Source of the DNA: Candidatus Bathyarchaeota archaeon
Lineage (GTDB): Archaea; Thermoproteota; Bathyarchaeia; Bathyarchaeales; Bathycorpusculaceae
Assembly (NCBI GenBank): GCA_963717465.1
Contig: OY970340.1
Coordinates: 576,001-640,000, forward strand
Direction of reading: 5' to 3'
DNA: 64,000 nucleotides
Part shown: piece after piece, positions 7,843 to 47,095 of the stretch
Position numbering within the stretch: the stretch's first letter is position 1
Layout of the letters: each line of letters begins with the position of its first letter
Position numbers and translations under genes: made by a program
Notes under the pieces: model-generated
Told to the model about the DNA's origin: nothing
Database searches by the model: none
The model's input: only the letters and a program-made list of their open reading frames with translations

Positions 7843-9267
7843 TTATGGTTGCCATTTATCGATTAGATATTTGGGTATATCTGAAGAGTCTCGTGGGCCA
7901 ACTTGAACTGTCCATCCGCTTAATTCTTCTATTTCACCGCTGAGTTTCGACGCCTTGCCGGGAATAATTATTTTCCTGTGCTTAACTTTGTTTTCGACTC
8001 CTGATGATTTAATTGCGTCAGCAACTCTATCTGCAGTCAATTTTCGTCCTGCAACTCCACTATCGATGGCTGAGCCTCCGGTATCAACAACTATTAAGTA
8101 AGCGTTTAATTTGCCGCTTTCTATGTCAGAGGCTACTGTATAGTACGTCATTGCAAAGTTAGAAGTGAAAAACACGGGCGAGTTTTCATTTGGAATACCG
8201 AACACTTTAAGGCCTGGAGCAACAGCCACGGGTTTACGTGGATCCGTGTAAATGTTCTGCCTTAGCACCGTAACTGGTAGAAGGGACCAGCCGTCTAAAC
8301 TATGCATCACAAGAATGTCAGAGTATCGAAGAATAAGCATTGAAGCAAGGTGCGATTCGCGCCACTTAACTATGTCTTCTGCTGTTTCACCTTTGTCCAG
8401 CCAAGCAACCATGGGAACACCCATCAGAGGATAGCCGGCAAGTTCTTCGCCTTCTTTGCATGCAGCTCTACGCAACATTGTAAAGTTGTTTAGTGTATCG
8501 GCGATACCTTCATTTGTGAAAGTACCTGGATCTAGCACTATGTCCTTTAAACCATAAGCAACCAATGTTTTAACTAGTGAAAGCAAAGCTGTAAGATCGT
8601 TCGGCGCCGAAGCTACCAATGGGCAATTGTACATTAAGGCGAGTTCAGCCATATCTTTCCAGTTTTCACTGGTCGCAGCATAAAGAAGTGGTCTCGCGTT
8701 AAGCGCCGCTGTAAGTCCAGCTTCAGCAATGTTAGGGCTAAAAGTGCATAAAATGATTGGCAGATTAGTGGTTTCAGAAACCCGTTTGACGGCTTGCTTA
8801 AATTTTTCAGCGTCGCCTGAAGTGCATCTGATAGCTATCATGTCCAGTTTTAAGGTGTTACCGATGTATTCGAAACTGTAGTTTTCTACTCGTCTAATTC
8901 TAGAAACGAGTTCTTTTTCAGAGATTTCATCTGTCACGTCAATTGCAATTGCTGTAGGGTTAAAGTATGCAAATTCATGGCGGTACATGACAAGTTTGCC
9001 GCCGATTCTTTTTGCATTTTCGCCCACCCCGACAACTATTTCTCTGACTGGAGGGCTTAGCATTTCTTTAAGTTGATTGTAAGCTTTCTCGTTCTCCCTC
9101 CTTAGAAGCGGTGGACATGATTCAAGTGTTGCTTCGCGGTTGACGATTTTTGTTGAAAATGCCATGCAGTTTTGGAGACCGCATTCTTTGCAGTTCATTT
9201 TAGGCAAGAGTTTATAGATTTCTATCGGACTTAGTTCTTTTATGCCTGCTTTCTTTTTTCCACTCAT
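7843..9267 (-). CDS. cdhE: ACDS/CODH gamma subunit (corrinoid Fe-S protein, large)
   Basis: LPKMNCKECGLQNCMAFS Fe-S motif, NIYTDPRKP; operon context. Confidence 0.95.
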   Translation of the reverse strand: MSGKKKAGIKELSPIEIYKLLPKMNCKECGLQNCMAFSTKIVNREATLESCPPLLRRENEKAYNQLKEMLSPPVREIVVGVGENAKRIGGKLVMYRHEFAYFNPTAIAIDVTDEISEKELVSRIRRVENYSFEYIGNTLKLDMIAIRCTSGDAEKFKQAVKRVSETTNLPIILCTFSPNIAEAGLTAALNARPLLYAATSENWKDMAELALMYNCPLVASAPNDLTALLSLVKTLVAYGLKDIVLDPGTFTNEGIADTLNNFTMLRRAACKEGEELAGYPLMGVPMVAWLDKGETAEDIVKWRESHLASMLILRYSDILVMHSLDGWSLLPVTVLRQNIYTDPRKPVAVAPGLKVFGIPNENSPVFFTSNFAMTYYTVASDIESGKLNAYLIVVDTGGSAIDSGVAGRKLTADRVADAIKSSGVENKVKHRKIIIPGKASKLSGEIEELSGWTVQVGPRDSSDIPKYLIDKWQP

Positions 9268-9282
9268 ACCAATTGCCTCTCT

Positions 9283-10516
9283 TTAAGTCTTAGCTGTAAC
9301 CCAATTAGGAAACTTTGAAGGTTCAGCTTTTTGACCGCTAACCAGATTGTTAATGATGTCCTTCATGGTTTTTACCGCAGCAGGATGTGCCATCATGAAC
9401 AAGTCAACTCCTGCCAACAAAAGAGTTAAAGCAGTAGTTAGTTCCCACAAGGGACCTCTAAGTTCACGTGGTTCCCACTCAACAGGCATTTTAAGCCAAG
9501 CTTCACGTGCCGCCCACGCATTCGTTGTACCAGAAGACATTGGATGTGCCAATTCAGAGTCACCCATCAAGGCTCCGAGCCTGGCGTGCTCCATATTAGT
9601 GAAAGAGTATTCTAAACCGTATCCTAAGGCTGCAGTAGTCAAATCCATAACGATGTCATCTCTGCCTAGGAAATCGTACAGGCGACGATTAAGTTCCCGT
9701 CCTAAGTTCAAGTCCATCGGGGAAAAAGCCAGCGCTGCATGGCCCGTTTTTTTAACGCATTTTGCGACTCTTTCAATATCCATGTCGCCAGTGATTGAAC
9801 TAATTAGAAAGCGTTCTCCTTGGAAAGCGTTACATACTGCTTCGAATACCTCTGCGTCTTTAGCTGAGTCACCGCAGCCGCCGATTACAAGGGGCACATC
9901 AACTGCTTGCAAGACTTTTTCAACTGTTTTAACAGCATCCTGTGGTTTAGTATCTTTAAGCAGCGGGTCAATGCTGATTAAGTGGATGGTAACCATGTCA
10001 GCACCAAATTTTTCAACTGCAAGTTTTGCCCAAGCTGCAGGGTCGCCGATCACTTCACTAACGTGCATTTTAACAGCTTTTGAAAGGGGAACTTCCATGT
10101 CAAAAACGTCAAGAGTTATAACTGGCTTGTGAGCTGTTGGCTGCTCAAAAGTGTAGAAAGCAGGAGAAGTCTCTCCGCCAATTATTATTGAGCTGCGTCG
10201 TGTTCCACCCTCGCTTTTTGTCGCGCCCAGTTTTACCTCAGCAATTCTTACTAGTGTAGGCACCCATTGGTGGCGAAAATGGTGCGGGTAAGATTGCGGT
10301 TGGCTTGCCACCCTTGATGCCTGGAAGCTTAATTTTGGGAATTAATTGACCAGTTGCCGATGGTTCGAAGACTATTTGCAACTCTTTTAAGTCCATCTGA
10401 AAGTCTTCAAGTTCAAGTTGCTGAGACTTAGCAAGCGCGTCTAATATGTCGCTGAGGTTTAGCCCTTCATTAGACGTTTTCTTTTTGTCAACCTCGCTAT
10501 TTGCCAAAAAGATCAC
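9283..10516 (-). CDS. cdhD: ACDS/CODH delta subunit (corrinoid Fe-S protein, small), one frameshift near 10250
   Basis: ORFs 10238-10516 and 9283-10311 join; EVKLGATKSEGGTR, ALGYGLEYS, NAWAAREAW. Confidence 0.9.
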
Positions 10517-11937
10517 CTTTTCTCGGGTTTATTACTATTGCTCTTGTTCGTTTGTACGATGATTACTTTGCGTGCATAGATTTTTGCGTCTTTAAGTATG
10601 ATCTTGAATCCACCAGCTGAAATTGGTAATGATGTGGCTGTTGCAACGGGCAACATGGTTCCTTCTGCTTCCTCTCTAACTATTGCTTCTTCAGCCTCTG
10701 CAACTGGAGCCTCTTCAGCAATCCATCTTGCCACAACGGGATGGTTCATCTCTTGGAGGAATTCTTTTAATGTTTCAACGTTTTGAGCGTTGTCTTCAGT
10801 AGCAATCTTGTCCACTACATCTTTGGGGATGAAGTCTTTAACTCTTTCTTTAACTTCCTTCGGTAGCCAAACTACCCTATGCCAGCCACCATCGGCAGCG
10901 AGAAACTTTTTTGAACGCATGTATTCGATGCTAATTCCATGGAAGCCATCTACTTGTCGCCCACCCGCTGTTGAGTCAGCCAATGTTGAGAATGGTAAGC
11001 CGCTTACTGTTACACCCTTAAAGCTTCGGTGGACTATGCCGAAGCCTTCGACTTCTGGAATGTAGAATGCTATTGCTTCAAAGCAGCCGCATGAAGTGTG
11101 CGGGTGATCGAATGCAGTGTACATCCAGACTTGTGAGACCTCGCCTAAGGTACGGCTTTTAACGGTTTCGTTTACGCCTGCAAATTCGCCTTTTTCAGAA
11201 TCTATTACTTCGCCACGTTCAATAGCGAATACGGGCCCTTTTGGATCAACGCTTGCTGAGGCTTTTCCGTCAAACCAGCTGATGGCGCCACAGTTAGAAT
11301 ATCGTTGGGGAGAAATAATGCATACGTGCGAGGGAGCAAACGATTGGCAAAGAGTGCACCCGTAGAATTTATCAACTTCTTCATCTTTAAGACCTCTGGC
11401 TTTAGCATCTCTGGAATCATATGATTCAATTGCGATGGTGTAGATTTCGGATACTTTGGCTGGGTCAGTGATAAAAGTTATTTGAAGTTTCTCAATTATG
11501 GGCAATTCACTCTTGAAGAGCCTAAGGAGAACCTTGCCGATTGGTTCGAAACTGTTTAAGCCTTTTTGGTATGATTTCTTTGCTAAGCGTAACCAAATGT
11601 CATAACGTTGGTTTAGGTGCATGAAGCCTTCAATGTAGTTTAGGTACTCGTGAATGCGCCTCTCTATTACGCCTTCTAAACTTTGGTCAAGAGTTGGACC
11701 TGCGGCTTCGATTATTAAGCCAAAAGGAAAGGCTCCACCTTCTTTTAGATCTTTAATGTCAGGGCCAACAATTGTGATTTTTCCATCGTCTACCTCGTTC
11801 ATGGGTTTTACTTTGGCGATTTCAAATTTTTCTTTGACAGCTGGACCACCGAGCTCTATTTGCATGTCGTTTTTGCGGATTCTTTCTCCTTCGTATATTA
11901 CGCCTACGTCGACAGGTATGTCTTTAAACATTGACAT
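10513..11937 (-). CDS. cdhC: Acetyl-CoA synthase (ACDS beta subunit)
   Basis: CTLCQSFAPSHVC, PHTSCGCFE A-cluster motifs. Confidence 0.97.
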   Translation of the reverse strand: MSMFKDIPVDVGVIYEGERIRKNDMQIELGGPAVKEKFEIAKVKPMNEVDDGKITIVGPDIKDLKEGGAFPFGLIIEAAGPTLDQSLEGVIERRIHEYLNYIEGFMHLNQRYDIWLRLAKKSYQKGLNSFEPIGKVLLRLFKSELPIIEKLQITFITDPAKVSEIYTIAIESYDSRDAKARGLKDEEVDKFYGCTLCQSFAPSHVCIISPQRYSNCGAISWFDGKASASVDPKGPVFAIERGEVIDSEKGEFAGVNETVKSRTLGEVSQVWMYTAFDHPHTSCGCFEAIAFYIPEVEGFGIVHRSFKGVTVSGLPFSTLADSTAGGRQVDGFHGISIEYMRSKKFLAADGGWHRVVWLPKEVKERVKDFIPKDVVDKIATEDNAQNVETLKEFLQEMNHPVVARWIAEEAPVAEAEEAIVREEAEGTMLPVATATSLPISAGGFKIILKDAKIYARKVIIVQTNKSNSNKPEKR

Positions 11938-31124: not shown

Positions 31125-32260
31125 ATGGAAGAGACTGAAGAAGAGCCTTCGCATCTTAATCATGAAAATGAAGAAATTAAAAATCGTGGTCCCTTTTCAC
31201 TTTTAGACGGTGCAACTGCACAGGTTCCGTCAATAACTCCTGAATTGTATTTTGAAAGCAAGACAGCTAGAGATCACAGCAAATCGCTTGAAGAACGGCT
31301 CGAATGCTTTGAAATAATACTTGATTCAGAAGTAGGCGATACAAACCTAACCCGAGCAAGAAACATTGAAAGAGAAGTTGGACTTCGACAAATATACCTT
31401 AAATTCGAAGGCGGAAATCCAACTGGAACACAAAAGGATCGCATCGCCTTCGCACAAGCTCTTGACGCGCTTCGCAGGGGATACGATGAAATAACAGTTG
31501 CTTCATGCGGCAACTACGGCGCAGCAATCGCGTTAGCTGCATCCTTGGCTGGATTACGATGCCTAATTTACATTCCTGAAGGGTACCACGCTAATAGAAT
31601 CAAAGAAATTAAGCAGTATAGGCGCTGAAATAATTAAGACTCCTGGAGATTATGAAGAATCAGTGAAGATTTCTCGTGAACAAGCTGAAGCAAAACGGCT
31701 ATTACGATGCGAATCCAGGCGGAAGCAACACAAACATTCAATTCAAAGCGTACGGCGAAATAGCTTACGAGATTTACGATGAACTCAGAGATGCACCTGC
31801 AGCTGTAGCTGTACCAGCCTCAAACGGCTCCACGATAGCAGGAATCTACAGAGGCTTTCTAAGCTTATACAACCGAGGAAAAACATCCCGCATTCCACGC
31901 TTCATTGCAGGTTCGTCTTACGGCATGAACCCAATAATAAACGCCTTCATCAAAAATATGCCTCACTGCTGCGACCTGAAACCTGAAAAAATCAGAAACA
32001 CGTCAATTAATGAGCCTTTAATCAACTGGCGTTCAATCGACGGTGACTACGCGCTTTCAGCCATCAGGCAAACTCATGGATGGGCTGCATATGCAACTGA
32101 CAAGAGCATGATGGATTACGCACGTTTAATACGTGATAAAGAAGGCTTAAGTGTCCTTCCAGCGTCCACAGCCGGGTTAATAGCACTTTTGGATAGACAT
32201 AAAAAGGAACCTTACCCTGGCGACCGATATGTGGTAATCCTTACTGGGCGCAAAGCGTGA
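31125..32260 (+). CDS. PLP-dependent threonine-synthase-like enzyme, frameshift(s) around 31620-31690
   Basis: LKFEGGNPTGTQKDR, ASCGNYGAA, VPASNGST, LPASTAG. Confidence 0.85.
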
Positions 32261-33319
32261 GCGAGGCATGCCAGCAAGAAAGAGCATTAGTCTACTGCGA
32301 AAGAGAATATCTGAATGCAAACGGCAAGACAGCTCACGGACTTGTACGGTACACAACAAGATACCAAATCGTAGGCGTCGTTGATTCTACTGCTCCTGAG
32401 GGAGACGCAGGAGAAGCATTAGATGGAAAGAAGAGGGGAATCCCACTATTCCACGATTTAGAAGAAGCAAGTGAAAAAACTAAGCCAGACACGTTTATAA
32501 TCGGAGCAGTTTCTGAAGGAGGCATTCTTGCCAAAAGGCTACGATAAAGCAGTCATTTATGCTTTGCAGCAGGGCTTAAATGTTGTTTCAGGACTGCACC
32601 AATTTATCTCGGATGATGAAAGGTTCACTTCAATAGCTGACAAAAACGGCTGCAAAATCACAGATGTCCGCAAAATGTTTAGAGACCACAAACGCTTCTA
32701 CACAGGCGAAATTAGCAAAGTAGGTTCAACCAGAATTGCCACTTTAGGCACAGATTCAGCCATTGGCAAGAGAACCACAGCAGTCACGTTAGTCAACGAA
32801 TTGAGGAAACGCAAACGCAAAGCTGACATGATTTACACTGGACAAACCGGATGGATGCAAGGTTGGCCACATGGAGCAGTCATCGACGCCGTGATAAACG
32901 ACTTCGTTTCAGGCGAAATTGAAGGAGCAATAATCGATTCTTGGAGAGATGAAAAACCCGAATTCATAATAATCGAAGGACAAGGAAGCTTGGTTCACCC
33001 ATTCTTCCCAGGCGGATTTGAAATATTAGCTGCGGGACAAGTTCACGGCTTCACGTTGCAAGATGCCCCTGGCCGTCCATGCCTTGATGGTTTCCCAGGA
33101 TACCCAATGCCTGATCCAATGCGGGTGGTAAAGATAGCTAAACTTCTTTCACAACGCCCACTCGTTGGAATAAGCATCAACCATGAACACTTATCAGATG
33201 ATCAAGCTAAAAAAGCCAAGGCTAAGCTGCATAAGAGATTCAAGGTGCCTGTGGAAGACCCAGTAGTTGATGGCGTTTCACAGATCGCTGATGCCATCGA
33301 GAAACTCAGGGATGGTTGA
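32257..33319 (+). CDS. DUF1611 family protein (DgcN-like), frameshift near 32530
   Basis: GKTAHGLVRY, VSGLHQF, GTDSAIGKRTT, TGQTG, IEGQGSL. Confidence 0.85.
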
Positions 33320-35343: not shown

Positions 35344-36280
35344 TTGAAAGAAGCAATCAAAGACCACGAATTCAAAGGCAAAATGAGCGTGAATGAGCTC
35401 GTCTTGCAGATGGATAAGGCTTGGGGTTTTACAGCTGGCAAACTTGCCGTTGGTGTAAACATCCTTGAAAGCATGATTAACGCCGAAAGGTTGCGTAAAG
35501 TTTCTTTCTTTTACGGGTAACCTTGTTGCTACGGGCACTCGCGGCGTAATAAGGGAGCTTGTGAAACGCAAACTCGTAGATGTCGTAATAACTACCTGTG
35601 GGACATTGGATCATGATATGGCACGTTGCTGGAAAGACTACTACAAAGGCAGTTTCGTAATGAACGATTCTAAACTGCATCAACAAGGCGTAAACCGCTT
35701 AGGAAACGTACTCGTCCCCAACGACAGCTACGGCATAGTGATCGAGCAGAAAATGCAAACTTTGCTAGGAGATTTGTATAAAGAGGGTAAACGTGAGGTT
35801 TCAGGCAGCGAATTAATCCGTGAAATCGGCTTACGCTGCTGCAATGAAAGCTCGATTCTTTATTGGGCAGCTAAAAACAAAATTCCAGTATTTGTGCCGG
35901 GCATAACTGACGGCGCAGTGGGTTATCAAACATGGTTCTTCAGTCAAGACCATGATTTCAAACTTAACTTACTTAAAGACGAAGGTGAACTCAACAACAT
36001 CATATTTGATTCCCCGAAAAGCGGAGCCTTAATCGTCGGTGGAGGAATCTCAAAACACCACACAATCTGGTGGAACCAGTTTAAAGACGGATTAGACTAC
36101 GTCGTTTACATCAGCACCGCAGATGAGTGGGATGGCAGTCTCAGCGGCGCAAGACCACGCGAAGCTGTATCATGGGGAAAAATTAGTGAAAAAGCCAAAC
36201 GCATAATGATCGAAGGTGACGCAACAGTGATCATGCCCATAATGACTTGCGCACTCGTTGATAGGCTAAAGAAAAAATAA
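35344..36280 (+). CDS. dys: Deoxyhypusine synthase, frameshift near 35488
   Basis: TTG start at 35344; FLSFTGNLVATG, NRLGN, GGGISKH, DGSLSGARPREAVSWGK. Confidence 0.92.
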
Positions 36281-38341: not shown

Positions 38342-39406
38342 TTAGGTTACGTCTTTAAATATCCAGCTCATGTCTGGTCCTTTTCGTTTTTCTGGAACTC
38401 GCTCGCAGAGTGCGTGTGCTATTAGTGGTAGTGCGATTGTGGCGTCGCAGTAGCATACTGCTCTTGTCCCTGCTTGGCTGTTGATTTTGCCCCAGCTGAT
38501 TGCCTCTTCAAGTGTGCAGCCTGATAATCCGCCCCATTGTGGAGCGTCAGTGGTTATTTGTATTGCATACTTGTGTGGGTAGTAGTATTCTTGTAGGCTT
38601 TTTCTTAAGCCGCCTTTTCTTCCTTTCACGCCTTGATCTTGAGTCATCGGTGAAACTGAAATGGCTATGAGTTGTGTGAGGTCTTTTGGTACTCCACCGC
38701 CGATATAGACGACGCCGACATCCTTAGTTCTTGTTCCGATACTGATGAACTGGTCAAACTCTTTAACAGAGTCAAGAACAACGTTGTGCCCCTGATTCTT
38801 AGCCATAAGGAATGTTTCGCCATAGGCACTGTCAACCATTGCTGGACTGAAAATGGGGACCCCATTTTCTGCTGCGACTGCGCTTATGGCTGGAATTTTT
38901 TTCTTGCCAAGATACTTGCCAAGCAAGTATAGGAATTCTGCTGAAGTGTAATTATAATTAGTTTTCAGGGTCATGACGAAGTTTGTTACCACTTCTTCCA
39001 TTTTACGGTAATCTGTTTCTTTGCCGAAAACGTCGTAATACCTGTTCACGTCTGCTTTTAGCAACGCTTCATCATCAACCATGTGGCTGCCTTGCCAGTA
39101 ACCAAGACCCATGGCATCAACTATATCTTCGGAAACATTGGCGCCGGTGGAAACTAAAACATCGATGAAACGGTTCTCCATGAGCCAATTAATAATTGTC
39201 CATTGACCAGCGGTACTCATGGAACCGGCAAAACCCATGGCAATCGTTAAGTCTTTTTCCTTTAACATGTTTTCCCAAACATCAACTGCTTCCCCAAGTT
39301 TCCTTCCTTGATAAGCAGTTTTGCTCATTTCGGAAAGAAGCTGTGAAACACTTTTCTTTTTAACCTTAATAGGCTCAAGCTTCTTTTTGAAGTACATGTC
39401 ACTCAA
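38342..39406 (-). CDS. Deoxyhypusine synthase-like protein, second paralog
   Basis: LVSTGAN, IGGGVPKD, WGGLSGCTLEEAISWGK, CDATIALP. Confidence 0.9.
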   Translation of the reverse strand: MSDMYFKKKLEPIKVKKKSVSQLLSEMSKTAYQGRKLGEAVDVWENMLKEKDLTIAMGFAGSMSTAGQWTIINWLMENRFIDVLVSTGANVSEDIVDAMGLGYWQGSHMVDDEALLKADVNRYYDVFGKETDYRKMEEVVTNFVMTLKTNYNYTSAEFLYLLGKYLGKKKIPAISAVAAENGVPIFSPAMVDSAYGETFLMAKNQGHNVVLDSVKEFDQFISIGTRTKDVGVVYIGGGVPKDLTQLIAISVSPMTQDQGVKGRKGGLRKSLQEYYYPHKYAIQITTDAPQWGGLSGCTLEEAISWGKINSQAGTRAVCYCDATIALPLIAHALCERVPEKRKGPDMSWIFKDVT

Positions 39407-39575: not shown

Positions 39576-40091
39576 ATGGGCAAGCAGAATACGCGGGCTA
39601 AGAAAGATCAGGAAAATTTGAAGGTTTTGTTTGCTCTGATAGCGCTTGGCGGCAAAAGCGATAGAGAGATTGCCAAGATCTTGAAAATGAGCAACGCAAC
39701 GTTGTCTAGGCGAAAAAAGAAGCTGGAGCAAGAGGGTTACATAAGGGAACACACGGTAATACCTGACTTCCACAAAATGGGACTAGAATTCATCGTATTT
39801 TCATTCGCAAAAACCACGGATGTAATAACACCAGCACAAGTTGAAGAAGCACAAAGCTTGATTAATAAACAGCCCGAAGTGCTATGCCTTCTGGAAGAGC
39901 GCAGCTTAGCAGGAACAAACTGGGTTGCCGTGTCCGTACACAAGGATTACAACAGTTACTTGGAACTATCTGAAAAATTGCAAAGAGAATCAACGTTCAG
40001 ACCAAATGTGGAAACGCACAGCTTCATGTTTTACACCGGCAAAAAGTTTCCAAAAACATTCTCACTACGAAACCTGGAAACACTATTCTAA
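39576..40091 (+). CDS. Lrp/AsnC-family transcription regulator
   Basis: SDREIAKILKMSNATLSRRKKKLEQEGYI wHTH, IPDFHKMG. Confidence 0.85.
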   Translation: MGKQNTRAKKDQENLKVLFALIALGGKSDREIAKILKMSNATLSRRKKKLEQEGYIREHTVIPDFHKMGLEFIVFSFAKTTDVITPAQVEEAQSLINKQPEVLCLLEERSLAGTNWVAVSVHKDYNSYLELSEKLQRESTFRPNVETHSFMFYTGKKFPKTFSLRNLETLF

Positions 40092-40234: not shown

Positions 40235-40632
40235 ACCGAAAATCTTTCCTTTTTCTTTCCTTTTTCCTTTTTTTAAACTCCAGACTATGCCTGTTTATGG
40301 CTATGGCTATTTTAGAAGATGAAATAACGTACTAACTCGCATGCATAAGATAGACTGAGTTCTGCAATTTCCATAATATATGTTATATAAAGTGGCAGAA
40401 ACTGCAAAGAATTTGTTTTATATAAACAGAACCTTATTAGACCTTAAACATTATTAAAGAAAATAGTTCAATTATGTAACAATGTTACGGATTAAAAGAG
40501 AAAGTGTTCTGTTTTGTCGCAAAAAGCGTAATGCGCTTATTATCTAACCTTAAATAGCCATCAAACCGCATATAGGTTATTTCGTCCTAAAAACAAAATA
40601 AAAATGGGAGATAAACAAAGATAGGAGATTGA

Positions 40633-42949
40633 ATGATGAGTGTAAAGGTTGAAGATATAAAGAAATTCGATGGACAACACAGATGCGTCTGCGGTTTCTG
40701 CAGTACTGGATCTTGTCAATTGCTTGAAATAGTTCAAGACGGTAAGATCGTTAAGGTTGAGCCTGACTGGGAAAGCCCGTTTAATCCTGGGCCGTACTGT
40801 CAGAAGTGGAAGTACAGCTTAGAATACATTTACCACAAGGACAGGCCGAAGTACCCAATGAAGCGCATTGGCAAACGCGGCGAAGGCAAATGGCAAATAA
40901 TATCCTGGGCTCAGGCATATAGCGAAATATCAGCTAAAGTGAAGGAAATCGTCGCAAAATACGGCGGCCCATCCGTATGTGGCTTCTTTGGCACAGGCCG
41001 AGCCGCAAACTTAGGTCTAGGACTGGCTATTTTCCACGTATTAATAGGCAGCCCGAACTTTGGCTCTATAGCGGCTCAGACATGAGCCGGACCCACGAAC
41101 CAAGCCTTAGGATTAGGCTATGGCGTGGGAATAACATATGCAATGATTATCCCAGGTAAGACAAAAGGTATCTTTACAATTGGCACAAACCCAAGTGAGT
41201 CATGGACGTATTCATGGCCCGCATTCATTGCAGGATTAGAAGCTGGCACAAAAATGCTCAACGTCGACCCAAGATTCACGGAGACAACCAGACATTCTGA
41301 AATGTGGTTAGCGCTTAGACCCGGAACTGACACGGCCCTACTGATGGCTATAATTAATGTCATCATAGAAGAGGATCTATACGATCATGAATTTGTGGAA
41401 AAATGGACCTTTGGATTTGACAAGCTAAAAGAAAGGGCTAAACAGTATACACCTGAAAAAGCTGCGGAAATAACATGGGTTCCAGCTGAAAAAATCAGAG
41501 AAGCAGCCCGATGGATAGTGAAAAACCAGCCATGCACATTCCCATATGGCTATGCAATCGAATCAGCAGGCAGGAATTCTCTAAGCAATGTCCGCTCCAA
41601 ATATATGCTACCTGCATTAACTGGCAACATCGACATAGAAGGCGGCGAATACCTTCACGCAAAACCGAAATTCCACTCAGTTGTTGAATCAATGCACGAC
41701 ATAGTTGCGTTAGCAGATACGGATTCAATGATGAAACAGGTAGGAATAGACAACCATAGGGCGCTAAACTTCTATATTCATCCTCTGATGCAACAGGCAA
41801 GCCGATGGAAAAGGATACTGGGGTGACACTCACTCCTCAGGATCAAGAGGTCCAAACTTCTGCAACTTTATGGATACAATGGTATCGGAGAAACCCTATC
41901 CAATCAAGGCTATGCTATCCGGTGAAGTAGGTCCAATGAGGAATTATCCAAATATAAAGAAGGTTTATGAGGGTCTCAAGAAGCTTGAACTCTTCGTGTA
42001 CATTGAAGACGCTCAAATGACTCCTGAAGCCATGCTAGCAGACTACGTACTACCTGGCACCAGCCAATTCGAAAGACCTTCCGGCTATGCAACTCTTACT
42101 GGTCAAGGCGAGATTGAATTTGAGATTGCAGGAGACCGCGCAATGGCAAGCAAGATACCTGGTCTGTGGGATCTTGAAGACGATACGATCATATTCCGAA
42201 ACCTCGCTGTCGGAGTACTTGGTAAGGAATTAGTTGATAAAGTTTGGAAATGGAAGACTCCCGAGGAATTCCAAGACTGGTTCTACGAACCCGCAGGTTG
42301 GACTCGAAAACAAGTTATTGAGGAATGGAAAGGTGTACCACCATATGAGCCCAGATTCAAGAAATACGAGGAAGTTAACCCAGAGACTGGACTGGTTAGA
42401 GGCTTTGGTACTCCTGAGGGCAAAGTTGCGTTCTACTCGACTATTCTTGAGCAGATTGAATACGATCCGTTGCCGTATTATCAGGAATGCGCTTGGACAC
42501 CAATTAGTGCACCTGATATTGCAAAAGACTACCCATTCATTATGACTAGTGGAGCCAGATTCCAAGAAGCCCACCATGGCGAACTACGACACATCAGCTT
42601 AATGCGGCATTTGCGTCCATTCCCACGTGTAAAGATGCACCCACTGACAGCACGCAACATGGGTATCGGAGACGGCGAATGGGTCTACATTGAAACACCT
42701 GTTGGCAGATGCATGCAGCAAGTACGGTACGATTTCGGAGTTAACCCAAAGGTAGTTTCTCCTGAACATGGCTGGTGGAGACCAGAATTGCCAGCTGAAG
42801 AACCAACACTGTACGGATGGACAGACTGGAACATCGACGTAACAATTCCAAACGATGATGAACAACTCAGCCCAGAACTTGGCGCATGGTGCTTCAAAGC
42901 AAACCTAGCAAAAGTGTACTCAGCCAACATTGGACCAGTAGGTCCATAA
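40633..42949 (+). CDS. Mo/W-bisPGD oxidoreductase (DMSO reductase superfamily, acetylene-hydratase-like) with in-frame UGA at 41083 (candidate Sec) and one +1 frameshift near 41800
   Basis: CGFCSTGSC...C [4Fe-4S], RPKYPMKR.GKRGEGKW, VDPRFTET, LRPGTDTAL, ADYVLP, C-terminal MPT-dinucleotide domain (HGWW). Confidence 0.9.
41092..41129 (+). promoter_or_regulatory. Candidate SECIS-like hairpin just 3' of the in-frame UGA
   Basis: CCCACG/CGTGGG, AA bulge, CCA/TGG, A bulge, AGCCT/AGGCT, loop TAGGATT. Confidence 0.6.
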
Positions 42950-42990
42950 ATTAAATTTTTCCCTTTTTGTTTTTTCTTTTTTTTCTTTTG
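42950..42990 (+). terminator. Oligo-T terminator
   Basis: Dense T-tract directly after the stop codon. Confidence 0.6.
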
Positions 42991-43276
42991 ACATAAGTTT
43001 AAGCAAAATTAAGATTACTTTGCCCAAACGCTTCTTGCCTCAGAACGTGTTTAGCCGTGATATATTTAGAGCCAGACGTAATTAGGCTTCTTTTAAGCTT
43101 CTTTAATATTATATCTTCATAATGAATATTCCAATTTGGAATTTATTTGAAGCTTTTGCAAAAATTTTTTATCAATTTTCCCATTAATTCAAACTATAGT
43201 TCTGAAATATCATGATTATAAAAACGATAAATCTTTATATAATATTTTTGACATATTAAGATAGCAGGGAAGGTAA

Positions 43277-43453
43277 ATGGTTAAGAACCTGAAAGTAGTT
43301 AGCGTCGAAACCGTCTATGAAGAAGAACATTACATTGTTCAAAGCTACAAGATTGATGAGGATAAAAATGACGCTACCGATTTTGACAAGGACGAAATAA
43401 AAGGAAACATGAAAAAAGAAGCATCTAAGCCGCTTCATTTACGTCGAATCTAA
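43277..43453 (+). CDS. Small acidic hypothetical protein (58 aa)
   Basis: GGAAGGT upstream; MVKNLKVVSVETVYEEEHYIVQSYKIDE...; below the ORF-track cutoff. Confidence 0.4.
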   Translation: MVKNLKVVSVETVYEEEHYIVQSYKIDEDKNDATDFDKDEIKGNMKKEASKPLHLRRI

Positions 43454-44202: not shown

Positions 44203-46150
44203 TCACATTTTTTCAGGAGCTGTAACGCCAATTAATGTTAAGGCATTATGAAGTACAGTTTGGATTGCTTTTGTTAAGGCTATTCTTGCGTCGCTGAGTT
44301 CTTGTGAGTCTGCTTTAATCACGGGCAATGCATTGTAGAATGTGTTGAATTTGTCGGCTAAGGCATTTACGTAATCTGCGATCATGTTGGGTTTAAGGTA
44401 TTCTGTTGCTTCAATAAACATGTCTGGGAAACCTGCCAAAGCTAAGATTAATTCTCGTTCCAGTTTTTCTTTTAGTAATTCGAATCCTGGTTTTTCGGGT
44501 TCCCGTGCTGCTTTGCGTAAGATGCTGCATGCTCTAGCGTGGGTGTATTGGACGTAGGGTGCACTGTTGGTTTCAAAGTTTAGCACTCGATCCCAAGTGA
44601 AAACCACGGATTTTGAAGCGTCCACATCCACAAGCGAATATCGTACTGCTCCGATGCCTACGAAATCTGCAATTTTGCGCTTTTCTTTCTCGGTCAGCAT
44701 TGGTGATCGCTTGGAAACTTCTTCGTAAGCCCGTTGAACCGCTTCGTCTAAAACTTGGTCGAAAGTGATGTAGTGTCCTCTGCGGCTGCTCATTTTGTAT
44801 CCTGGAAGAGTAACCAGATTATAAGCGAAATGTACAAAATTATCTGCAAAGTCACCCTTACCAAGTGCGTAAAGAGCAAGTTTTAATTGCAATTGTGCAA
44901 GCGACTGCTCCATGCCGATAACGTTGACCACTTTCTCAGCCAAATTAAACTTCCATAGCGTATAAGCTACGTCACGTGTGGTGTACAGTGTGGTGCCGTC
45001 AGCACGAACAAGCGTTAATGGCGGAACCTCATAGTTTTCATGCAGGCCCAACTTGGGTTTTAATTTAAGTTGGTTAACAGCTTTTTCGCCGTCAAACTCT
45101 AAAACTCCACTTTCACTGAAAACGTAGCCTGAAGCTTTGAGTTTCCGTAAAACCTCAGATACTTGGCTGCTCCAGACGAAATCGCTCTCCCAATCCCAAG
45201 AATCATATGTAACTGACACACGTTTTTGCGTTTCTCTGAAACCGTCAAGACATAATTCGCTGACTTCCCGAATTAGCTGTTTTGCTTTAGGTTCACCTTC
45301 TTCGTATGCACGATTTAACCGGTTAATTTCCTCTTCAGGATTTTCATCTTTGCTAACCTGCATCAGAAGCGTTTCAAAAAGCACAGGGTATTTTTCTTTC
45401 AATTCGGAGGCGATGGAAAGCCACTCGTCAATTTCCTTATTTACTTTAGCTAAATCGTCCGCAGAATCTGGGTCAATTGCTTGGCGAACTCTTTTTAAAC
45501 GGTTGATTTCAACGATGCAACATGTAACCGTGTAGATTTTGCCAACGAACAAGTCGGCTTTTTCAGTGGGTTTTGGTCGACCAAGTTTGTCATAACCGTA
45601 GGCGACAACGCTGGATTGGCGACCAACATCATCAATGTAGTAGTGAGTTGAAACCGTGTGCCCCCTACATCTGAGAATGCGTGCTAAGGCATCTCCAAGC
45701 ATCGGGATTTCTTGCTTGTCCAATATGAATAGGATGCAGAGGATTAACACTTGTATGTTCGACGATGATTTTTTTAGGCTTATCGGTTTTAACGAAACCG
45801 TAGTTAGAATTCAACTGCTTAACTGAATTCAAAGTTAAAGCGGAGAATTTGGTAAAATCAACATAAAAGTTGATGTATCCTGCACCGGCAGTAGCAACTT
45901 TTTCAATTAATTTAAAGCTGGATTTATCGATGTTATCGACAAGTTGGTTAGCAATATCAAGAGGCTTTTGCCCCAGTTTCTTAGCTAACTCAAAGCAAAG
46001 TGAAGAAGCCAATTGTCCATACTCAATGTTTGGCGTCTTGCTCAAGTTTATGGTTGTATGCTTGGTTTCTGGAAAGGACTTTTCTAAAGCTTGAGCTAAT
46101 GCTGCTTCGCATTCTTGGCGGAACAGGGCAAAGGGGTTTTCAGTAGTCAT
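44203..46150 (-). CDS. argS: Arginyl-tRNA synthetase, frameshift near 45705
   Basis: EHTSVNPLHPIHIGQARN, KMSSRRG, PYVQYTHARACSIL. Confidence 0.95.
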
Positions 46151-46242
46151 CCGTTTTTTTTCTCCTTTAAGTTGCTAAACCTTAATAGCAAGTTGTATTT
46201 TAATTGAAGACAATCATTTATCTTGTATGGATTCGGAAAGCC

Positions 46243-47095
46243 ATGAAAACAACAATAATCTATTCAGAAAAATGTTTAGGTTATGGAATAAGGCACATTG
46301 AAGGACCATCACGAGTTAAAAAAGCTCATGATATACTGGAGCAGAAGGGGTACAAGTTCGTTGAGCCAACTCCAGCAACAGAAGAGCAAATTCTAAGAGT
46401 TCACGACAAAGACTACATCGATAACCTCAAGAAAGGTTCAGTTGAAGATGAAGATACGCCAGCATATAAAGACATTTATGAGTATGCAAGGCTTTCAGCT
46501 GGCGGAGCAGTTTTAGCCTCAAAAATAAACGGTTTTTCACTTATGCGCCCACCCGGACATCACGCTGGAAAAAACGGTAATGCTCTTGGAGCTCATACTC
46601 GTGGATTTTGCTACATCAATAATATAGCAGTTGCTGTTAAGACGCTTGGCAAGAAAACTTTGATTTTGGATATTGATGGTCATCACGGAAATGGTACTCA
46701 AGATATTTTTCAAGATGACAGTAACGTAACCTATGTTTCGTTGCATTGTTATCCGCTTTATCCGCATACTGGAGCAACTTCTGAAGGAAACTGCTTATAA
46801 TTTTCCTTTGCCAGCCGACTGCGGTGAAAAACAGTATTTAAAGACTTTTGATAAAGCTTTAAGCATGGTTGACGCAGACAAGTTTGAAGTGGTTGCTGTT
46901 TCAGCTGGTTTTGATACGCACAGGGGTGATTTAGCATCTTTGAATTTAATTGAAAAAAGTTATTGGGCTATTGGCAAAAGAATTGCTTTGCTAAAGAAGC
47001 CGACATTTTTTGTTTTCGAAGGCGGATACGTGGGTGAAAACAACGGTTTGGACATCGACATGTTTCTGAAAGGTTATGAAGAAAACATGGTTTAA
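46243..47095 (+). CDS. Histone deacetylase-family (AcuC/HDAC) deacetylase, frameshift near 46795
   Basis: RPPGHHAG, GFCYINN, DIDGHHGNGTQ, SAGFD, FEGGY. Confidence 0.9.

Follow-up and report, generated by a model that had tools for sequence, protein, structure and literature searches.

A gene in a 64,000-nucleotide stretch of the genome of a Candidatus Bathyarchaeota archaeon (contig OY970340.1, positions 576,001 to 640,000; hereafter the window, numbered from its first letter) raises the question of whether a TGA codon that interrupts it is read as a stop or as selenocysteine (Sec). The gene (40633–42949, forward strand) encodes, by its Pfam domains, an acetylene-hydratase-like enzyme carrying molybdenum or tungsten on a bis(pyranopterin guanine dinucleotide) cofactor (Mo/W-bisPGD), with a length of ∼771 codons once a one-base frame change is bypassed. 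Translation in the frame of the ATG at 40633 reaches the TGA at 41083–41085 as codon 151, within the residues ...GSPNFGSIAAQT-U-AGPTNQALGLGYGVG..., and the same frame remains open until a second TGA at 41824–41826. The initial annotation had described an open reading frame (ORF) of 40633–41085 that ends at this TGA and continues in frame into an ORF at 41125, and both the continuation, which extends to 41826, and the offset of 492 nt, a multiple of 3, are confirmed by the translation. The C-terminal 383 codons sit in the +1 frame, up to the true stop TAA at 42947–42949 (forward strand), where the C-terminus ...KVYSANIGPVGP agrees with those of the paralogues. The gene hence carries two interruptions of unlike kind, namely the TGA, which leaves the frame intact, and an insertion of 1 nt; the clean in-frame stop had been correctly recognized in the annotation, which left the frame shift in the enzyme gene itself (41799/41800) unweighed. 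Across the two frames the domain set of the MopB/DMSO reductase superfamily is complete (PF04879, PF00384, PF01568): the first frame yields Molybdop_Fe4S4 (residues 19–68) and Molybdopterin, and the last 383 codons yield the remaining end of Molybdopterin, followed by Molydop_binding.

The TGA at 41083–41085 (forward strand) is very likely read as Sec at the Mo/W-ligand site, and the sequence comparisons that point to this are the Cys column of the homologues, the ligand of a solved structure, the Sec machinery of the genome, the conserved TGAs of the paralogues, and a contrasting case in a relative. When the first 398 residues were aligned by MAFFT with 120 full-length homologues (∼700–1200 aa, 36–46% identity), the column of codon 151 contained Cys in 119 proteins and Asp in the remaining one, and the HMMER residue alignment places codon 151 opposite the Cys of ...AMYMCIGNT... 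in acetylene hydratase 2e7z, which is reportedly the tungsten ligand, Cys141 in the numbering of the structure paper. The protein ligand of the superfamily, which can be Cys, Sec, Ser, or Asp, follows the GSPN motif, and the TGA occupies exactly that column. Both the proposal of a Sec at the metal-ligand position and the expectation of a Cys/Sec column among homologues are supported by these alignments. The genome contains 11 Sec-type copies of the gene including the window copy, 48–83% identical over the N-terminal part, and each has one TGA, always at the motif ...AAQx-U-AGPT... (11/11); eight of them are otherwise open across 766–788 codons. A more distant paralogue in the same genome (36% identity) encodes Cys (TGT) at the ligand position. 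Further UGA-at-Cys genes, which the annotation had named as something to look for, are also present, namely the 10 additional paralogues and an HdrA-MvhD gene in which two TGAs occur. In contrast, a homologue encoded by another genome of the order (G075) contains a TGA (L136, G075:C50:2300-5500) that replaces the Trp of the motif written GKRGEGKW or GERGENKW, while its ligand is Cys, and a search of the G075 genome for SepSecS returned no matches. Either a nonsense mutation or an error of sequencing accounts for this TGA, whose place at a Trp site in a genome without SepSecS illustrates how a true nonsense codon appears beside the Sec TGAs.

The machinery needed for Sec is encoded in the same genome, which is a single contig of 3,053,889 bp (C1). 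Two genes for tRNA-Sec(UCA) exceed the cut-off of 47 bits, at 71.8 and 61.8, and ARAGORN concurs; they lie at C1:845693-845779 (+) and 2829638-2829725 (−), and their acceptor stems differ by paired changes. SepSecS (489 bits) adjoins the first tRNA-Sec gene, and SelD (240 bits) itself carries one TGA at codon 14 in the motif VHG-U-SCK. PSTK and aSelB occur as fusions in two ORFs of 732 and 730 aa (L017:670-2865, +, and L018:1084-3273, −; mutual identity 54%), each of which contains KTI12/PSTK, GTP_EFTU, domain 2, and aSelB_III in one frame; one fusion adjoins SelD and the other adjoins the second tRNA-Sec gene. The PSTK part of the fusions scores 151 and 134 bits, under the TIGR03574 cut-off of 290.5, and is matched by Pfam KTI12 at 1e-34 and 6e-39. 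The G-domain motifs of the second fusion are altered, reading GHCKHGKT and EMPGN where the usual forms are GHVDHGKT and DLPGH. The two tRNA-Sec genes and two fusions may represent two parallel Sec delivery systems. The components on which the annotation had made a Sec reading depend, tRNA-Sec(UCA), SepSecS, SelD, PSTK, and SelB, are thus all found, the last two as fusions. The assignment to a Bathyarchaeia-like archaeon made in the annotation is borne out by a deoxyhypusine synthase of the window (38342–39406, reverse strand), whose nearest named relatives, Candidatus Bathyarchaeota or Bathyarchaeia, are 84–86% identical.

None of 24 genomes sampled from the genus contained SepSecS, and among 16 further genomes of the order a single one (G039) did; no Sec-type enzyme was detected in these 40 genomes (E up to 1e-40). 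A further 150 genomes of the order yielded nine with homologues, all Cys-type at the ligand and none Sec-type, and the HdrA homologues of the SepSecS-bearing G039 are all without stops. The best relatives in species-representative genomes of other lineages share 27–44% identity only.

Directly past the TGA, within the coding sequence, lies a 38-nt hairpin (41092–41129, forward strand) that is a candidate Sec insertion signal, with its stem beginning 6 nt after the TGA. The predicted fold, UGA-N6-CCCACG-(inner stem, 7-nt loop)-CGUGGG, has a minimum free energy of −19.9 kcal/mol (z −3.6), which was equaled by 1 of 200 shuffles. The hairpin is present in all 11 paralogues, and in their alignment 89% of cells form standard pairs, compared with 23–47% when the 3′ partners are slid by 1–3 columns. 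Changes on both sides have occurred in 5 of the 14 hairpin pairs, which 1 of 500 shuffles attained, and in the copy that has diverged most (C1:1822504) the inner stem differs but is still paired. The arms encode conserved residues, and synonymous sites were therefore examined at four-fold-degenerate columns with an invariant residue in the seven closer intact copies. A single codon was used in 5 of 7 such columns within Sec+1 to +15 compared with 14 of 135 elsewhere (Fisher 4.6e-4), and nowhere in the gene was synonymous diversity lower than in the 15-residue windows starting at residues 149–158, in a copy where Sec is residue 150. As the columns compared belong to the same genes, shared ancestry does not account for the difference. 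The genome's own Cys paralogue (C1:1818227, TGT) folds at −9.8 kcal/mol without a stem at +6, and a Bathyarchaeia relative with TGT (L054) folds at −10.9 kcal/mol. A wider control against Cys-type homologues of other genomes was discarded, as the column was misplaced in most of its 80 loci: 33 were unmapped and 20 had non-Cys codons, and the 27 Cys cases averaged −17.4 kcal/mol in G+C-rich bacterial DNA, which folds strongly regardless.

Similar stems accompany some other in-frame TGAs of this genome. The HdrA-MvhD fusion gene (L119:124-2697, reverse strand; C1:1519923-1522496), with 858 codons and FAD, Fer4, and FlpD domains, has its two TGAs at the Cys-rich motifs ...DCSI-U-IEGP... and ...MCNW-U-GYAG..., and a strong stem starts from +6 after each. 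In a genome scan, TGAs open on both sides had folds of −18 kcal/mol or lower in 15 of 364 cases compared with 8 of 700 TAA/TAG controls, and among folds of −17 kcal/mol or lower the first paired base fell at +6 in 8 of 19 compared with 1 of 12 controls. This genome-wide excess is suggestive only, because six of the eight are paralogues of one family and the independent sites number ∼3. A separate 413-codon frame (L120:91-1329, reverse strand; C1:2822990-2824228) contains TGAs 60 codons apart (...VISF-U-EEPY... and ...FMMS-U-GCPM...), and Pfam at 1e-5 assigned it to no family.

We infer that the hairpin at 41092–41129 is a Sec insertion signal placed as in bacteria, a role we hold with moderate confidence. 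The best surviving alternative is that the TGA does encode Sec and the hairpin is something else, either a by-product of conserved codons or an element of translational pausing or mRNA stability, with the Sec insertion sequence (SECIS) lying elsewhere or being needless. Several findings weigh against a signal and lend this alternative its substance. The arms encode conserved and indeed invariant residues (GPT ... GVG) in 11 copies that share descent, and the pair counts therefore make the changes look more independent than they are. The genome's own SelD (L012:1492-2508, forward strand), with its Sec TGA, lacks a hairpin after the TGA (z +1.0) and likewise in its flanks; the SelD of G039 (L137:15993) has a stem at +6 after the TGA that is unremarkable against shuffles (z −1.2, 27/200). 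Neither PSTK-aSelB fusion contains a detectable winged-helix domain of the SECIS-binding SelB type (Pfam, E up to 0.01), and Rfam returned for 40300–43400 (E up to 10) four chance-level snoRNA/miRNA rows and no SECIS. In addition, archaeal SECIS elements are described in passages of two papers as lying in untranslated regions, in Asgard archaea 30–500 bases downstream of genes (PMC9499178; PMC9723677). On the other side, synonymous positions are frozen at precisely this place, compensatory changes preserve the pairs, and the same +6 spacing recurs at the two unrelated Sec sites of HdrA-MvhD. The untranslated regions also offer little in place of the hairpin: the flanks of the window gene (150 nt each) fold no better than shuffles (3′ z −0.07, 5′ z +0.16), and the 3′ flanks of the 10 listed Sec copies begin with T-runs after the stop and have no shared hairpin. 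A hairpin that is not the insertion signal is judged unlikely, although it keeps more weight than the other alternatives considered here, a real pseudogene and a plain stop codon.

The placement of the proposed signal would combine features of two kinds. It resembles the bacterial SECIS read by SelB, as in Escherichia coli fdhF, in lying within the coding sequence as a hairpin immediately 3′ of the UGA, and differs from it in that the machinery here is the archaeal PSTK/SepSecS/aSelB set, that the fusions are without SelB winged-helix domains, and that no Rfam SECIS model matches. It differs from the archaeal SECIS of untranslated regions in that both flanks of the window gene are unstructured.

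The second interruption of the gene, the frame change, raises a separate doubt. At 41799–41800 (forward strand) the window reads GCAAGCC where the DNA alignment gives GC-AGC for the two nearest paralogues (L026, L027), that is, one extra A (AA instead of a single A), with the +1 frame downstream in the translations, and an in-frame 3-nt difference follows a few codons past the extra A. Without this base the product is ∼771 aa and colinear with the paralogues. The site was also compared with assembled contigs from four metagenome runs (X1–X4; shares of matching runs 0.05–0.14), which as assemblies are silent on expression and depth; the matching runs listed included no RNA run. All four contigs that cover it lack one letter near 41806 (X1 2/2, X2 1/1, X3 1/1, with X4 not covering); they are 90–98% identical to the window (29/306, 4/197, 25/630, and 7/273 differences), and two of them, at 97–98%, are nearer to it than any paralogue. 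Pieces 97–100% identical to the gene region 40400–43100 occur in runs labeled peat and freshwater-sediment metagenomes, and the many variants of 88–95% in the same runs probably stem from paralogues or from strains related to this one.

At least four other genes in the window are split across overlapping frames according to Pfam. The arginyl-tRNA synthetase (44203–46150, reverse strand) is divided into an N domain (45665–46150) and catalytic plus DALR domains (44203–45750), and on the forward strand the same applies to a histone-deacetylase-family gene (46204–46800 / 46733–47095), a PALP enzyme (31125–31628 / 31676–32260), and a DUF1611 gene (32257–32547 / 32528–33319). Such splits indicate frequent single-base insertion or deletion errors in the assembly, and the completeness of the genome is 88% despite the single 3.05-Mb contig. 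The extra A is therefore probably an error of the assembly consensus, the real gene being intact, since the contigs lack the base, other window genes are split, completeness is reduced, and a broken arginyl-tRNA synthetase, an essential gene, is hard to credit as real. The opposing view is that the insertion at 41799/41800 is genuine and the window copy is a pseudogene whose work is done by other copies. In its favor, the copy is frame-shifted as assembled, two more copies are broken (C1:2798703 and C1:132008/132723), and a family of 11 copies can bear losses; the first two of these points also count against taking the window copy as a working gene. Apart from the Sec TGA, however, there is no other lesion, and the gene is open in two frames that align end to end with the paralogues; taken with the base missing from 4/4 covering contigs in three runs and with the split arginyl-tRNA synthetase and three other window genes, which fit consensus errors, this makes a real pseudogene improbable, more so than a hairpin without signal function.

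The way in which gene callers handle such genes bears on the weakest alternative. A large protein collection contains C-terminal pieces of 560–607 aa, 63–79% identical, from other NCBI contigs of 75–201 kb (P0124–P0130), and these begin at the first start codon past the hairpin region (MIPGKTKG..., MGLTYANIIPGK...). Clustering at ≥90% groups three of the pieces with copies of this genome, and it seems that in at least one further assembly, from a close relative, the gene calls are split in the same manner. If 41083–41085 were a plain stop or nonsense codon, the locus would be dead or would hold two genes, one for a 150-aa Fe-S piece and one for the remaining ∼600 aa. Such a codon would fit the splitting by gene callers and the C-terminal pieces recorded for this genome and other assemblies, but it is very unlikely: 11 diverged copies share the same single TGA in the column of the ligand Cys, full Sec machinery is present, and a break there would leave the cofactor-binding domains on one side and the metal ligand with the Fe-S domain on the other. 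In the comparison of metagenome contigs with the window, no difference at 41083–41085 appeared among the 40 of 359 difference rows that were listed.

With codon 151 read as Sec, the enzyme is closest to acetylene hydratase. A profile of eight paralogues searched against solved structures gave acetylene hydratase 2e7z_A as the best match, aligned from end to end (E 2.5e-135, 455.7 bits), followed by the polysulfide/thiosulfate reductase PsrA 2vpw (252.7 bits) and then by formate dehydrogenases (Fdh). The W-bisPGD/[4Fe-4S] enzyme of Pelobacter acetylenicus (2e7z) shares with it the order of Fe4S4, Molybdopterin, and Molydop_binding domains, the absence of an export signal, the absence of a partner-subunit gene beside the enzyme gene in the window, and a ligand residue in the same column, which is Sec here and Cys there. 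The enzyme is probably cytoplasmic, because no twin-arginine leader precedes it. The N-terminal [4Fe-4S] domain has its Cys motif at 40684–40800 (forward strand; C18-x-C20-x2-C23-S24-x3-C28 ... C56, from translation, Pfam Molybdop_Fe4S4, and the 2e7z alignment), with a spacing of C-x2-C-x4-C compared with C-x2-C-x3-C in acetylene hydratase, and a further difference from that enzyme is the presence of 11 copies in this genome. The annotation had also reported that the Asp of acetylene hydratase is absent (CGFCS), and the HMMER alignment to 2e7z agrees in placing Ser24 opposite the Asp that follows the second Fe-S Cys there; the column is Ser in the seven closer of the eight aligned paralogues and Gly in the divergent one (CAFCG). 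Seiffert and co-workers reportedly found in 2007 that this Asp is essential for hydration. Having Ser24 in its place, the enzyme lacks one defining feature of acetylene hydratase, and a substrate other than acetylene is a reasonable expectation from the missing Asp.

Other members of the superfamily resemble the enzyme in different respects. In the Sec-containing forms of FdhF, FdhA, and formylmethanofuran dehydrogenase B (FwdB), Sec ligates Mo or W at the corresponding site, and FDH-H 1aa6 and others match the N-terminal half of the enzyme at 127–139 bits. Against the Fdh-alpha model, the N-terminal half scores 210 bits, far under the cut-off of 666. According to passages of PMC10100899, Sec use in the superfamily is listed only for FwdB, FdhG, and cytoplasmic Fdh, all known redox enzymes, while the acetylene hydratase clade, to which this gene belongs, is listed as Cys. 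The catechol dehydroxylases of Eggerthella and Gordonibacter (Dadh, Cldh) are, in the portions of PMC7028382 that treat them, the nearest to acetylene hydratase and form expanded, substrate-specific, and substrate-induced families of gut Actinobacteria, with members in environmental bacteria and archaea as well. The kinship to acetylene hydratase and the expanded family are shared with the genes described here; unlike them, the dehydroxylases come without selenocysteine in that source (0 occurrences of the word in PMC7028382). Homologues from Gordonibacter, Ellagibacter, and Eggerthellaceae are 29–36% identical, and on this identity the family may belong with that clade.

Regulation gives a further hint at function. 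A winged-helix regulator gene of 171 aa (39576–40091, forward strand; Pfam HTH_24 1.3e-7, MarR 9.5e-6) lies ∼540 nt upstream of the enzyme gene and is likely its dedicated regulator, judging from position and domain content. An HTH_24-type ORF stands just upstream of five of the eight intact paralogues, or six of nine with the window copy, and the HTH_24/MarR genes concerned are L026:731-1303, L027:3061-3579, L029:2979-3581, L031:3307-3912, and L032:3-1202. A redox family is favored over acetylene hydratase because of the Sec ligand, the lost hydratase Asp, and the regulator found per copy. By analogy, the family may consist of enzymes that reductively dehydroxylate plant-derived aromatics, each with its own substrate, or that catalyze comparable redox reactions on them, a tentative assignment that we put at somewhat less than an even chance. 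What counts against it is that the dehydroxylase idea has family likeness as its basis, and the enzyme might instead be a hydratase, or a chalcogen or oxyanion reductase. Genes for Old-yellow-enzyme-like flavoproteins were observed beside two of the copies (L028:2941-4161, L027:3793-4137).

Other features of the window concern the end of the gene and the metabolism of the organism. A T-rich tract resembling an archaeal terminator (42950–42990, forward strand) follows immediately past the stop, and no conserved stem-loop was found in it. CdhD, a second truncated CdhD-like ORF, and CdhC/ACS beta of CO dehydrogenase/acetyl-CoA synthase are encoded at 7843–11937 (reverse strand), and these Cdh genes indicate an organism with a Wood-Ljungdahl-type module. 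Two deoxyhypusine synthase genes lie within 3 kb (35561–36280, forward strand; 38342–39406, reverse strand), and the match of the first starts only at profile position 56, which could reflect a truncation or a frame shift.

Parts of this picture have been described before. A Sec-encoding system with fused PSTK-aSelB in diverse Bathyarchaeota is reported in section 3.4.1 of one paper and in part of a review (PMC8762117; PMC9499178), so that Sec in a Bathyarchaeia-like archaeon, as proposed in the annotation, is supported, whereas the lineage is less new to Sec than the annotation implied, as the published account precedes it. The system in that section (Mukai et al., 2022) agrees with the present one in the lineage and in the one-ORF PSTK-aSelB beside SelD or tRNA-Sec; it differs from the present genome, in which the fusion and the tRNA-Sec gene each occur twice. 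The term SECIS is absent from the text of PMC8762117 (figures and supplements aside) or of PMC5424206, and no molybdoenzyme is named in the Sec passages of PMC8762117 (figures and supplements aside). Searches of the literature found no description of SECIS elements in Bathyarchaeia, no Sec form by title for acetylene hydratase and selenocysteine in archaea, and no report by title or abstract of a SECIS inside an archaeal coding sequence with molybdopterin selenoproteins. Sec in the acetylene-hydratase-like clade and an in-gene archaeal hairpin were therefore not found in print, while Sec and PSTK-aSelB in Bathyarchaeota are known.

Taken as a whole, a Sec-liganded enzyme with a local hairpin signal, a frameshift artefact, and a redox family is the explanation we consider best, and as a whole it is held with good confidence. 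Sec would be made by SerRS, then by PSTK, and then by SepSecS with selenophosphate made by SelD, and delivered by aSelB, with PSTK and aSelB fused in this pathway of the genome. The hairpin at 41092–41129, beginning 6 nt past the UGA, would recruit or position the Sec-tRNA-Sec:PSTK-aSelB complex locally, so that termination is avoided; it would act as the bacterial SECIS does for SelB, unlike the 3′ untranslated placement in Methanococcus. Sec151 would then ligate Mo or W in a cytoplasmic acetylene-hydratase-like Mo/W-bisPGD enzyme, and the one-base insertion at 41799/41800 would be a consensus error in a gene that is really intact. A broader statement, evenly poised between acceptance and doubt, is that Bathyarchaeia with PSTK-aSelB fusions decode Sec-UGA through an in-gene hairpin at +6, and that freedom from a signal in the untranslated region may have allowed the burst of 11 Sec-liganded, individually regulated enzymes for anaerobic transformation of plant aromatics. 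Archaeal aSelB is not known to have an SBP2 or a SECIS-binding domain with which to locate a UGA.

The conserved hairpin 6 nt past the UGA is the most interesting element of the locus, outweighing the enzyme class, since a signal beside the codon, together with a PSTK-fused aSelB, would make the recognition of UGA by aSelB testable. If true, it would represent a third arrangement, in which archaeal and eukaryal Sec biosynthesis is combined with a bacterial-style signal placement. A Sec form in the acetylene hydratase/catechol dehydroxylase clade, present in 11 copies, would be a new selenoenzyme class, and its host lineage is among the most abundant archaeal groups in sediments. Because gene callers split every such gene, both selenoproteins and molybdoenzymes are counted too low in archaea of this kind.

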